A stretch of DNA of 64,000 nucleotides from NCBI RefSeq assembly GCF_058153355.1, contig NZ_CM177019.1; one strand, written 5' to 3'. Of this stretch, positions 1,447 to 6,710 are shown in pieces. Numbering within the stretch: position 1 is the first letter of the stretch; every line of letters begins with the position of its first letter. The notes beneath the pieces were generated by a model. The model saw only the letters and a program-made list of their open reading frames with translations, was not told the DNA's origin and searched no databases. The translations under genes were made by a program, and so were the position numbers.

Positions 1447-1459
1447 CTGCCGACGGGCG
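1447..1459. repeat. 13-bp target-site duplication (ctgccgacgggcg), right copy
   Basis: Exact direct repeat of 8-20. Confidence 0.8.
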
Positions 1460-1728
1460 GCCTTTTTTATAAAGTGTATCAACGGTTTATTATTGATGCA
1501 CAAATTAATATAAATATATTCTGAATTATTGGTGATGTCCTATTACGCACTTGATTTTTTACTGTTTTAATAATATTTATATAATAAATTTATATTTAAT
1601 TTCGCATAATTAATATTATTTTTAGATAAAAATACCCCTTTGGTGTACTATGCCTCTGAATCATAAAATCACTTATTAATTTAAGTTATGATTTAGACTG
1701 AAGGATATATTATATCAATGGAGTTTGT

Positions 1729-2301
1729 ATGAAACGTAATATTATTGGCGGTGCAATTACGCTGGCATCTTTAATGTTAGCCGGAAATGCACTTGCAGAA
1801 GATGGCGTTGTTCACTTTGTCGGTGAAATTGTCGATAGCACATGCGAAGTGACTTCCGATACCGCCGATCAAACAGTACCTCTTGGTAAGGTCAGTAAAA
1901 GTGCGTTTTCAGGAGTAGGCAGCCTGGCGTCACCACAGCAATTTAGTATTAAACTGGAAAATTGCCCAGCAACCTATACTCAGGCAGCCGTCCGTTTCGA
2001 TGGTACTGAAGCACCTGGCGGAGACGGTGACCTGAAAGTGGGTACACCGCTGACATCAGGTACACCTGGCGATTTTACCGGTACAGGACAAGCGATTGCG
2101 GCAACCGGCGTCGGTATTCGTATTTTTAACCGGGCGGATAATTCTCAGGTTAAACTTTATAACGACTCTGCTTATAGCACAATCGACGCTGACGGTAAGG
2201 CTGAAATGAAGTTTATTGCACGCTATGTTGCTACCAATGCGACCGTAACGGCGGGTACAGCAAACGCTGATTCACAATTCACCGTCGAATATAAGAAATA
2301 A
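1729..2301 (+). CDS. Fimbrial major subunit (chaperone-usher pilin), 190 aa with signal peptide
   Basis: N-terminal signal peptide, Cys pair, C-terminal pilin-like beta strand; first gene of a 4-gene CU operon; AT-rich upstream region. Confidence 0.75.
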   Translation: MKRNIIGGAITLASLMLAGNALAEDGVVHFVGEIVDSTCEVTSDTADQTVPLGKVSKSAFSGVGSLASPQQFSIKLENCPATYTQAAVRFDGTEAPGGDGDLKVGTPLTSGTPGDFTGTGQAIAATGVGIRIFNRADNSQVKLYNDSAYSTIDADGKAEMKFIARYVATNATVTAGTANADSQFTVEYKK

Positions 2302-2348
2302 TTAATACAGGGCCTTTTTATTCAGTTGGCTTTGGCCAGGGAGTCGTT

Positions 2349-3080: not shown

Positions 3081-3083
3081 GCA

Positions 3084-5627
3084 TTGCATAAGGATAGGCG
3101 AATTATGGTTACGACCAGAATAGCAGTTGGTCTGACGGCAGGGACATGTCTCGTTTTCTCGCAAAGTGTGATGGCCGAGGTCAGCATATTTAATCCGGCG
3201 CTGCTGGAAATAGACCATCAATCCGGAGTCGATATTCGCCAGTTTAACAAAGCGAATCACATACCTCCCGGCGTCTACAGTGTTGATATTTTTATCAATG
3301 GCAAAATGTTCGAACGGCAGGATGTGACTTTTGTTCAGGATAACCCTGATGCCGATCTGCACGCCTGCTTTGTCGCGGTTAAAAAAACGCTGACTTCCTT
3401 TGGTGTAAAAGTTGACGCGCTGAAATCGCTCAATAAAGTGGATGACCAGGCCTGTATTGACCCTGCACCACGCATTGAAGGCTCAACATGGCAACTGGAC
3501 AGCGATAAGCTGCAACTGAATATCACCATTCCCCAGATCTATATGGATGCGATGGCTTACGATTACATAAGCCCCACGCGTTGGGATGAGGGAATTAACG
3601 CACTGACTATCAACTACGATTTTTCCGGTTCACATACTCTGCGCTCGGATTACAGCTCACAGGAGACCGATACCAGTTATCTCAACCTGCGTAACGGACT
3701 CAATATTGGGCCGTGGCGACTCCGCAATTACAGCACCTTGAACACCACCGATGGTCGTGCGGAATACAACTCTATCAGTACCTGGATACAACGTGATATT
3801 GCTGCGTTAAGAAGCCAGATTATGATTGGCGATACGTGGACGGCGAGCGATATTTTCGACAGCACGCAAATCCGTGGTGCACGACTTTATACTGATAAAG
3901 ATATGTTACCCGCCAGCCAGAATGGCTTCGCGCCTGTGGTTCGTGGGATTGCAAAATCCAACGCCACCGTCATCATTCGACAGAACGGCTACGTAATTTA
4001 TCAGTCAGCCGTTCCACAAGGTGCCTTTGAAATCACCGACCTCAATACTGCCAGCTCAGGCGGCGACCTGGATGTGACTATCAAGGAAGAAGATGGTAGT
4101 GAACAACGATTCACCCAGCCTTATGCGTCGCTGGCAATCCTCAAACGTGAAGGTCAGACCGATGTAGATGTTAGCGTGGGGGAGCTGCGCGATGAAGATG
4201 GTTTTACTCCTGACGTGCTTCAGGCACAGATCCTTCATGGCTTGCCCCACGGTTTTACCTTGTATGGTGGCGTACAGGCTGCTGAAAAGTATGGTTCTGT
4301 TGCTTTGGGGGTAGGTAAAGATCTCGGTTCTCTGGGAGCCATCTCTTTAGATGCGACACATGCCAGAGCGAAATTTGCAGATGATGATGCGGAAACGGGT
4401 CAATCATATCGTTTTCTGTATTCAAAACGTTTTGACGATACAGACACCAGCTTACGCCTGGTTGGCTATCGTTACTCTACCGAAGGCTACTATACCCTCA
4501 ATGAATGGGCCTCCCGGCAAAATAGTCCCGAAGATTTCTGGCAAACCGGAAACCGTCGCAGCCGTGTGGAAGGAACGTTAACGCAATCGCTGGGCAGAGA
4601 TTATGGCAATTTATACCTGACATTAAGTCGCCAGCAGTATTGGCATACAGATGATGTCGAACGATTAATCCAATTTGGTTACAGCAGTAGCTGGAAGCGC
4701 CTCTCGTGGAACGTCTCATGGAGTTATTCCAATACGGCCCGGCAAGGGACGAGTAATAGTCAGGCCAGTGATAACACCAGCGAACAAATCTACATGCTCT
4801 CTTTATCAGTTCCATTATCGGGCTGGTGGGGAAATAGTTATGCCACCTATTCGGTTTCGCAAAATGATGATTCTGGTAGCTCGCATCAACTTGGCCTAAG
4901 CGGTACGGCGCTGGAGAAAAATAATCTCTCCTGGAATCTCATGCAGTCCTATAACAGCCGCGATGATCAAGTAGGCGGTAATATGTCGCTGACCTATGAC
5001 GGTACCTACGGCACGTTAAACGGCAGTTATAACTACAGCCAAAATTCTCAGCGACTCAATTATGGTATCCGGGGGGGCATTCTGGCGCACAGTGAAGGGG
5101 TAACGTTTAGCCAGGAACTGGGTGAAACCATCGCTCTTATTAAAGCACCGGGAGCCGCAGGTCTGGAAATTGATAATATGCGCGGGGCGGCAACAGACTG
5201 GCGTGGTTACACGGTTAAGACACAGCTAAATCCTTATGATGAAAACCGGGTAGCGATCAGCGACAACTATTTCTCTAAGTCGAATGTTGAACTCGATAAT
5301 ACCGTCGTTACGATGGTTCCTACCCGCGGCGCGGTGGTTAAAGCGGAGTTTGTGACGCATGTGGGTTACCGCGTTCTCTTCAGAGTGGTAAATGCAAATG
5401 GTAAACCGGCACCTTTTGGCGCCATTGCCTCAGTTCAAAACACAAGTACCGCCGATTCAGGAATAGTCGGTGATTCTGGTGAGCTTTATCTCTCGGGTCT
5501 GTCAGATAAAGGGCAGGTCACTTTATCCTGGGGAGGAGACGCAGTCACGAAATGTACCTTTGGCTACTCACTTTCAGTACCAGAAAATGAGAATGGTTTA
5601 ATTGAGCAGAGTGTCACCTGTAATTAA
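3084..5627 (+). CDS. Fimbrial outer-membrane usher
   Basis: 847-aa ORF, usher-like size and composition; alternative start at 3105 preceded by aagga RBS. Confidence 0.8.
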   Translation: MHKDRRIMVTTRIAVGLTAGTCLVFSQSVMAEVSIFNPALLEIDHQSGVDIRQFNKANHIPPGVYSVDIFINGKMFERQDVTFVQDNPDADLHACFVAVKKTLTSFGVKVDALKSLNKVDDQACIDPAPRIEGSTWQLDSDKLQLNITIPQIYMDAMAYDYISPTRWDEGINALTINYDFSGSHTLRSDYSSQETDTSYLNLRNGLNIGPWRLRNYSTLNTTDGRAEYNSISTWIQRDIAALRSQIMIGDTWTASDIFDSTQIRGARLYTDKDMLPASQNGFAPVVRGIAKSNATVIIRQNGYVIYQSAVPQGAFEITDLNTASSGGDLDVTIKEEDGSEQRFTQPYASLAILKREGQTDVDVSVGELRDEDGFTPDVLQAQILHGLPHGFTLYGGVQAAEKYGSVALGVGKDLGSLGAISLDATHARAKFADDDAETGQSYRFLYSKRFDDTDTSLRLVGYRYSTEGYYTLNEWASRQNSPEDFWQTGNRRSRVEGTLTQSLGRDYGNLYLTLSRQQYWHTDDVERLIQFGYSSSWKRLSWNVSWSYSNTARQGTSNSQASDNTSEQIYMLSLSVPLSGWWGNSYATYSVSQNDDSGSSHQLGLSGTALEKNNLSWNLMQSYNSRDDQVGGNMSLTYDGTYGTLNGSYNYSQNSQRLNYGIRGGILAHSEGVTFSQELGETIALIKAPGAAGLEIDNMRGAATDWRGYTVKTQLNPYDENRVAISDNYFSKSNVELDNTVVTMVPTRGAVVKAEFVTHVGYRVLFRVVNANGKPAPFGAIASVQNTSTADSGIVGDSGELYLSGLSDKGQVTLSWGGDAVTKCTFGYSLSVPENENGLIEQSVTCN

Positions 5628-5636
5628 AGGTTTTTT

Positions 5637-6710
5637 ATGAGAAATAATATTCTGTTGTGGTGTTTTTCTATTGTCGCCATTTTTTACACGAGTACGACTC
5701 TTGCGGCCCCTCAAGGTATCTGTACTCCGGATAATGGCGTTTTTCATAGTGTGCTTGATTTTCCTGGATATGTTATTACGGCAACTCAGAATAAAGCGGG
5801 GACCACATTTAATACAACAGTAACTAATTGCGGGTCTTATCCGGCACATTGTCACTGTAATACAGGAAAGGTCGGTGAATTTCCCTATATTTACTACACG
5901 GCAAAAATAAATGATGCTTTAAGTTATGCTGGGGTTCATTCTAATGTAAATTACTATAATCTTAATCCACATCTGGATGTGGGTATAGCAATTGATCTTT
6001 TAGGGGTCGGATTTGTTAATGCACCATTCGAGTATCATGCTAATGATCCTGATGTAACTACAGTATATAAGTGTGGAAGAGAGGAGCCATTAGATATTTC
6101 TAGTGGTGCCAAGGCTAAGATTTATTTTTATATTAAAAAACCCTTTGCGGGAAAGGTAACTATTCCCACAACGCTTGTTGCGAAGTTGTACGGAACTATC
6201 AGCCGTGACACACCGATTGATTATTCACAGCCGATGGCTGATGTTTATGTTCGTGGAGACATCACTGCGCCACAAAGTTGTGAAATTAATAGTTTACAGC
6301 CAATTAATTTTGATTTTAGTACTATTCCAGCCGCAGATTTTTCATCTGTTGTCGGGAGTGCTGTGTCAGCGCATAAAATCACCAAAACTGTCACTATTAA
6401 GTGTGAGTATTTAGGAATAATGAATACGGATGATATCACTACCTCTTTTTATGCTACTGAACCCAGTAGCGATAATTCGATGGTTGTAACATCAAACCCA
6501 AATGTAGGGATAAAAGTCTACGATAAAAATAACAGGGAAATCAACGTAAACGGTGGCGAACTACCAACTGATATGGGAGCAACAAGCGTTATTGGTGAGA
6601 AAGCTGGCAATGTAACTTTTTCTGCTGCGCCTGCGAGCCTCACTGGTGCACGACCCGCGCCAGGAACATTTACCGCTACGGCAACTATCACCATCGAAAT
6701 TGTTCGTTAA
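5637..6710 (+). CDS. Fimbrial tip adhesin / minor subunit
   Basis: 357-aa ORF with signal peptide, last gene of CU operon. Confidence 0.65.
   Translation: MRNNILLWCFSIVAIFYTSTTLAAPQGICTPDNGVFHSVLDFPGYVITATQNKAGTTFNTTVTNCGSYPAHCHCNTGKVGEFPYIYYTAKINDALSYAGVHSNVNYYNLNPHLDVGIAIDLLGVGFVNAPFEYHANDPDVTTVYKCGREEPLDISSGAKAKIYFYIKKPFAGKVTIPTTLVAKLYGTISRDTPIDYSQPMADVYVRGDITAPQSCEINSLQPINFDFSTIPAADFSSVVGSAVSAHKITKTVTIKCEYLGIMNTDDITTSFYATEPSSDNSMVVTSNPNVGIKVYDKNNREINVNGGELPTDMGATSVIGEKAGNVTFSAAPASLTGARPAPGTFTATATITIEIVR

Follow-up and report, generated by a model that had tools for sequence, protein, structure and literature searches.

A four-gene chaperone–usher operon, very probably of the LpfO113 type, at the glmS–pstS site beside an IS4 insertion

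Within a 64,000-nucleotide stretch of contig NZ_CM177019.1 (NCBI RefSeq assembly GCF_058153355.1), referred to here as the window, positions 1729–6710 very probably constitute an intact lpfABCD operon of the LpfO113 type (also Lpf2 or Stg), that is, a gamma-type (type-1-like) chaperone–usher fimbrial operon at the glmS–pstS site. The list of open reading frames (ORFs) holds four intact, closely spaced frames here, all in the same direction on the + strand, which supply every component of such an operon in the order pilin, chaperone, usher and two-domain adhesin (Table 1). A preliminary description of this DNA had proposed a four-gene operon of this composition, and the domain architecture of all four proteins, together with a match of the adhesin to a solved structure, confirmed it. 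The finding is the correct annotation of an already known system rather than a discovery.

Table 1. Features of the lpf segment and its borders, in window coordinates.
Feature	Position	Strand	Details
Left half of the glmS intrinsic-terminator palindrome	1–20	+	glmS itself lies beyond the left window edge
IS4, 1,426 bp	21–1446	-	transposase ORF 34–1380 on the - strand, divergent from lpf
Right target-duplication copy	1447–1459	+	with 1460–1468 keeps a short hairpin and T-run from the glmS terminator; terminator-like site 1447–1460
lpfA leader, AT-rich, putative promoter region	1460–1728	+	22.3% GC
lpfA, major pilin	1729–2301	+	190 aa; Fimbrial PF00419, E 3e-24
lpfB, periplasmic PapD-like chaperone	2349–3080	+	243 aa; PapD_N PF00345, 2.1e-38; PapD_C PF02753, 2e-10
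lpfC, outer-membrane usher	3105–5627	+	840 aa; PapC_N PF13954, 1.7e-41; Usher PF00577, 1.9e-186; PapC_C PF13953, 5.4e-17
lpfD, two-domain tip adhesin	5637–6710	+	357 aa; Fimbrial domain at residues 205–354 only
Hairpin, 11-bp stem, no U-run	6717–6743	+	7 nt past the lpfD stop
Right boundary of lpf segment, pstS promoter and ribosome-binding site	6843–6956	+	K-12 homology restarts at ~6843

Each protein carries the marks of its role. LpfA has a signal peptide ending in ALA, followed by EDG, a Cys39–Cys79 pair and the C-terminal strand FTVEYKK, and LpfB has the chaperone hallmarks Arg8 (in the mature protein) and a conserved cleft lysine within IKLFWRP. Confinement of the Fimbrial domain to the C-terminal half of LpfD is the layout expected of a tip adhesin, with residues ~25–200 forming a putative receptor-binding domain; residues 35–355 align with LpfD of strain LF82, an adhesin of known structure (PDB 5AFO, E 1.6e-21), and both domains are homologous. 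Signal peptides and Shine–Dalgarno sites were found for the lpf genes, and their starts are normal: lpfA has a ggag ribosome-binding site 8 nt 5' of its ATG, and for lpfC the ATG at 3105 (840 residues) is the choice made by RefSeq in homologues; a TTG in the same frame at 3084 would give 847 residues. Chance origin of the frames can be dismissed because they are of gene length, their domain matches are strong (E 2e-10 to 1.9e-186) and near-identical homologues are public.

The family assignment comes from several comparisons. By megablast, the segment was placed between glmS and pstS in complete Escherichia coli genomes, in which RefSeq names the genes lpfA-O113, lpfB-O113, lpfC-O113 and either 'fimbrial protein' or lpfD-O113; the exact LpfA and LpfB sequences of the window carry the names LpfA-O113 and LpfB-O113, LpfA being 100% identical to WP_032185533.1. 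Pilin and chaperone both passed the cut-offs of NCBIfam equivalog models (NF011817, 380.4 bits versus 203; NF011818, 500.6 versus 317). Identity to the proteins of EC42405 is 100% for LpfA, 99.6% for LpfB, 99.3% for LpfC and 99.7% for LpfD, and identity to the common LpfO113 operons is 90–94%, 87–88%, 92% and 77–79%, respectively. The LpfO113 system, variously named 'lpfB1' of Aas et al., lpfA2-1-type Lpf2 or Stg of avian pathogenic E. coli and carried by O113:H21, SE11, E24377A, O104:H4 and W, shares with the window the glmS–pstS site, the gene order lpfABCD and the protein lengths of 190, 243, 840 and 357 residues, with LpfA, LpfB and LpfC 87–94% identical. It differs in that the operons diverge by 13–17% in nucleotide sequence (82.7–87% identity), in that LpfD falls to 72% in its N-terminal receptor-binding half, and in that IS4 lies upstream in the window. 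Both a four-gene and a five-gene form of lpf have been described, with lpfA2-1 denoting the O113 type and lpfA2-2 the O157 type (PMC4636846, PMC3417533), and the four-gene form is 42–63% identical to Sakai LPF2 and occupies the same locus (PMC6033998). Window LpfA appears nearest to lpfA2-1 in the Torres scheme, with 93% identity to LpfA-O113 of E. coli W as against 56% to O157 LpfA2. The earlier, unverified suggestion of an lpf2-like operon is thus borne out by the RefSeq names and by reports of lpf2 or lpfO113 at glmS–pstS (PMC2608844, PMC6033998), and these comparisons support refining it to the four-gene LpfO113/Stg subtype. Neither a clustering of the usher and pilin with a different fimbrial family nor the operon in K-12-like strains at this locus was found.

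Related systems could be separated from it. The Lpf2 operon of O157:H7 (lpfA2-2, O-island 154) shares the locus and the order pilin–chaperone–usher–adhesin, but has five genes with a duplicated adhesin, lpfD'; in Sakai its chaperone gene is pseudogenised, and its LpfA, LpfC and LpfD/LpfD' are 56%, 63% and 40–44% identical to those of the window. With these identities and with four genes rather than five, the window operon does not belong to that subtype. Long polar fimbriae proper (Salmonella LpfABCDE, O157 Lpf1 of O-island 141 and the LpfD of LF82) have in common with the window the chaperone–usher class, the gene order and the LpfD fold family. They differ in amino acid identity (25–39%; for Sakai Lpf1, 39% in LpfA, 38% in LpfB, 38% in LpfC and 25% in LpfD), in possessing lpfE, which is absent from the window, and in the O157 lpf1 locus, which lies next to yhjX/eptB. 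The corresponding NCBIfam models were all missed (LpfA 92.9 bits versus 221, LpfB 142.6 versus 360, LpfC 739.9 versus 1271, LpfD 125.6 versus 412). Type 1 fimbriae were rejected as well, with all FimA, FimC, FimD and FimH models below cut-off (FimH 67 versus 472) and neither switch-like inverted repeats nor recombinase genes present. The Stg system (stgABCD of Salmonella enterica serovar Typhi and S. bongori) supplies the best NCBIfam model for the window adhesin, StgD, at a score below its cut-off; Salmonella stg has been described as syntenic and orthologous to E. coli lpf2, and StgD as hypervariable (PMC3373541), and this reported hypervariability parallels the divergence of LpfD in the window allele.

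The operon occupies exactly the interval between glmS and pstS, upstream of the pstS promoter, as had been claimed. In an alignment to the K-12 spacer, homology ends directly after the glmS stop codon and restarts at ~6843 at the Pho boxes, which are intact (6851–6890, with a 17/18 Pho box at 6851); the lpfD stop is followed after 246 bp by the start of pstS at 6957, and half of the glmS terminator is retained at the left window edge. MG1655 has only a 313-bp spacer here, in agreement with the preliminary statement that K-12 lacks the operon. Published work likewise places an lpf operon at glmS–pstS in SE11, E24377A, SMS-3-5 and Sakai but not in MG1655 (PMC2608844).

To place the window allele in the population we surveyed 5,426 complete E. 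coli genomes by megablast. The K-12-like empty spacer was found in 3,066, an LpfO113-type operon in 1,981 (36.5%) and an O157 Lpf2-type operon in 355, the last two sets without overlap. These three states of the site are essentially exclusive and cover 99.6% of the genomes, 43% of which carry one of the homologous operons; plasmid-borne copies were found in none of the 5,426. The allele class of the window is rare, with 18 genomes at an identity of at least 90%: of the LpfO113-type copies, 12 genomes match at 99% or more, 2 at 95–99%, 4 at 90–95% and the remaining 1,963 at 80–90%. Carriers of the type include the commensal SE11, for which lpf has been reported (PMC2608844), and KO11FL, a derivative of E. 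coli W. The preliminary view that some pathogenic E. coli have such an operon here stands, and the type is not confined to pathogens. The operon type is a target of virulence-gene polymerase chain reaction panels and of automated virulence-gene annotation, which gives the assignment its typing value; its presence is not a marker of pathogenicity because it is common and occurs in commensals. As the strain marker that it was proposed to be, the operon is an ordinary one, its type being present in over a third of E. coli, with a rare allele in the window; that allele combined with the IS4 junction described below is a useful clonal marker. For studies of receptor specificity the divergent LpfD domain is a fair candidate, though a modest one.

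The divergence of the allele is ancient. Against common LpfO113 alleles, the synonymous divergence (dS) of the lpf genes is 0.6–2.3, which is 4–15 times that of the adjacent pstS (0.14–0.16), and the ratio of nonsynonymous to synonymous divergence (dN/dS) is 0.05–0.12 in all four genes. Judged by these values the allele is much older than its flanks, because of the excess in dS, and under purifying selection, because of the low dN/dS. A sliding-window comparison with mainstream alleles gave 70–91% identity across the operon, with the lowest values in lpfD, within its 5' half, and revealed mosaic relationships: strain NN5, for example, is closer to the window in lpfD than in the rest of the operon. 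The lpf alleles are old allelic lineages, maintained by purifying selection and shuffled by recombination, not decaying genes.

The same sequences recur in public data. Exact copies of LpfA lie on 677 contigs and of LpfB on 456; the exact usher is EGO8353241.1 and the exact adhesin EGO8353242.1. Contigs 99.99–100% identical to the window come from GCA_015332025.1, GCA_043012465.1, SRR8656992 and SRR28786219; one begins within the end of IS4.

The preliminary description began its account of the operon at 1447, which abuts the right end of an IS4 element (1446) that it left unmentioned there. The element is ~1.4 kb long and encodes an IS4-family DDE transposase with Nterm_IS4 and DDE_Tnp_1 domains (NF033592, 304 bits versus a cut-off of 115; RefSeq 'IS4-like element IS4 family transposase'). 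It ends in the inverted repeats taatgcc...ggcatta and is flanked by a perfect 13-bp target-site duplication, ctgccgacgggcg, with copies at 8–20 and 1447–1459, in keeping with the 11–13 bp of IS4. At the corresponding site without IS4, EC42405 reads aaaagggctgccgacgggcggcctttttt, beginning 19 nt past the glmS stop, the 13-bp duplicated part beginning 24 nt past it. The insertion splits the palindromic glmS terminator, whose uninterrupted form in EC42405 folds at -21.6 kcal/mol (z -4.65), and leaves the lpf leader and genes untouched, its right end lying 283 bp 5' of lpfA. To the right of IS4 the leader, over the part compared, agrees with that of strains without IS4, with 95% identity to EC42405 across spacer and leader in the sliding window. 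A terminal hairpin of IS4 (11-bp stem) with a U-run, at 25–58 on the + strand, could by its predicted fold substitute for the glmS terminator.

Four more complete genomes have IS4 at exactly this point of the glmS terminator, with lpf alleles that are ~86–87% identical to that of the window; in the two of these that were inspected the target duplications are variants, CTGCCGACCGGCG and CTGCCGACCGGTG. These insertions point to an IS4 hotspot adjoining attTn7. IS4 has a strong target preference for AAA-N20-TTT, which the glmS-terminator palindrome satisfies, so insertions at the same position beside different lpf alleles fit that preference. A second copy, at 44675–46100, is 100% identical to the first, inverted and without a target-site duplication; its left flank lies inside dgoD (K-12 ~3.872 Mb) and its right flank in the glgP/glg–gnt/RyhB region (K-12 ~3.564 Mb, ascending). 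This copy apparently marks one end of a ~0.3-Mb inversion mediated by IS4. A public draft contig with the same usher is 43,222 bp long, which matches the spacing of the two IS4 copies.

From the established chaperone–usher pathway we infer how the operon would work. LpfA, LpfB, LpfC and LpfD would be exported via the Sec system, and LpfB would cap the subunits by donor-strand complementation using Arg8 and the cleft lysine. LpfC would first recruit the two-domain LpfD, which would become the fimbrial tip, and would then polymerise LpfA by donor-strand exchange into the shaft, leaving the N-terminal domain of LpfD to bind a host or surface receptor. The leader presumably contains the start of transcription; at 22% GC it would likely be silenced by H-NS under many conditions. 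Transcription probably ends at the hairpin that follows lpfD, before the separately Pho-regulated pstS promoter. That hairpin is very stable (-19.9 kcal/mol, z -4.35; none of 200 shuffles was equally stable) and is a possible operon-end terminator or messenger RNA stabiliser. An attenuator hairpin between lpfA and lpfB was not significant (z -0.56), and an Rfam scan of the whole window gave no match within or adjoining the operon. Roles in adhesion are reported for closely related operons: the four-gene operon is cited in PMC6033998 as contributing to the adherence of O113:H21, its expression was 10–12-fold higher in strains from patients with haemolytic uraemic syndrome (HUS) than in strains from non-HUS patients (PMC6033998), and an lpfA2 mutant of O104:H4 showed reduced adherence to polarised Caco-2 cells (PMC4636846).

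Several observations weigh against a typical and functioning LpfO113 operon in the window. The usher reached no NCBIfam equivalog cut-off (best 761 bits versus 995; closest PRK15193, LpfC and FimD), but is 92% identical to proteins that bear the name LpfC-O113; the adhesin scored 238 bits against the StgD cut-off of 493. Because the RefSeq name for LpfD of the window type is 'fimbrial protein' only, the receptor specificity of LpfD-O113 is not transferable to it. The regulatory scans of the leader were also unsupportive. The AT-richness claimed for the promoter region at 1460–1728 is real; promoter-like hexamers in the leader are in no excess over shuffled sequence, so that the best sigma-70-like match, TTTACT-16-TATAAT at 1558–1585, does not fix the position of the promoter. 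The lpf2 operon of O157 is iron-regulated, and a Fur-box scan of the window leader found at best 13 of 19 positions, well within the shuffled distribution. Pap-like Dam/Lrp phase variation was rejected because 1447–1728 has no GATC site, and so was a fim-like invertible switch, as only low-complexity AT-rich inverted repeats and no recombinase genes were found. The IS4 insertion could change the regulatory input from upstream. The phenotypes reported for Lpf2 mutants, including that of O104:H4, are partial (PMC4636846). In the laboratory, many chaperone–usher operons of E. coli are cryptic.

The main live alternative is an operon that, though intact, is effectively cryptic in this strain, silenced by nucleoid proteins acting on the leader or uncoupled by IS4 from upstream signals, and so a lineage marker that contributes little to adhesion. 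We regard this as a tenable possibility, though on balance a doubtful one. The extreme AT-richness of the leader, the absence of an operon-encoded regulator, the proximity of IS4, from which the leader is separated by a remnant terminator hairpin, the partial mutant phenotype and the poor expression of most E. coli chaperone–usher operons in vitro are all compatible with it. It is opposed by the strong purifying selection on all four genes and by the hundreds of contigs with exact LpfA and LpfB, which argue for use in some niche; moreover, clinical Shiga toxin-producing E. coli transcribe a related four-gene operon and express it differentially (PMC6033998), and the leader beside IS4 matches that of strains that lack the insertion. 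A further proposal, that glmS–pstS is an ancient, balanced cassette of fimbrial-specificity alleles (empty, LpfO113 or O157), in which the rare LpfD domain might bind a different receptor and help to shape the niche of the divergent Escherichia lineage carrying it, and the recurrent IS4 insertion might modulate lpf expression, strikes us as unlikely.

That the segment is an old resident of Escherichia and Salmonella also has to be weighed against its being a recent foreign genomic island at the attTn7/glmS hotspot, which we consider quite improbable. Some features would be expected of an island: the GC content of the lpf segment is 44–45.5% as against 52.9% in pst, K-12 homology has sharp breaks just past the glmS stop codon and again at the Pho boxes, and the dS of lpf is far above that of the flanks. 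The lpf genes are moreover closer to EC42405 (99.1–99.8% of nucleotides) than is the adjacent pstS (98.0%), which suggests allelic transfer between lineages. Yet the segment has no integrase, direct repeats or mobility genes except the simple IS4 with its own target duplication, homologous operons stand at the same site in 43% of E. coli genomes, and the orthologous stg at the same Salmonella site (PMC3373541) agrees with a locus that is ancestral and has undergone recurrent loss and replacement of alleles by homologous recombination across the conserved flanks, just as the mosaic identity profile fits recombination among resident alleles. A decaying pseudogene cluster is very improbable: although decay at this locus is seen elsewhere (a pseudogene of lpfB2, annotated stgB, in Sakai, an internal stop in lpfC in FDAARGOS_944, an lpfC frameshift in 2013C-4282, a split lpfD in NN5, and IS2, IS5 and IS3 insertions in other genomes), the four window ORFs are full length with normal starts and ribosome-binding sites, which refutes decay at the level of sequence, their products are 99.3–100% identical to intact annotated proteins and the exact sequences recur in independent assemblies.

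Beyond the operon, the core genes at 6957–44674 (pst, tna, yidC, dnaA, gyrB and dgo) are ~95.1% identical to K-12 over 28 kb, and their best match among complete genomes is strain 2013C-4282, at 98.9%. The same protein clusters include members labelled 'unclassified Escherichia' or 'Escherichia sp. MOD1-EC...'. Sequence comparison suggests a divergent Escherichia lineage as the source of the window, possibly one like cryptic clade I. After phoU, an AT-rich segment at 11600–16750 replaces the bgl operon of K-12 and its neighbours (bglG to cbrB) and is annotated in related genomes as type III effector-like genes (EspY/EspX-like), and a gene of the ShET2/EspL2 effector-toxin family lies between tnaC and mnmE (25850–28475). 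Rfam matches above the gathering score, all on the - strand, are AsdA, the antisense RNA of dnaA (33446–33526), the small RNA ES036/CssrF (39003–39045) and RyhB (62927–62991).

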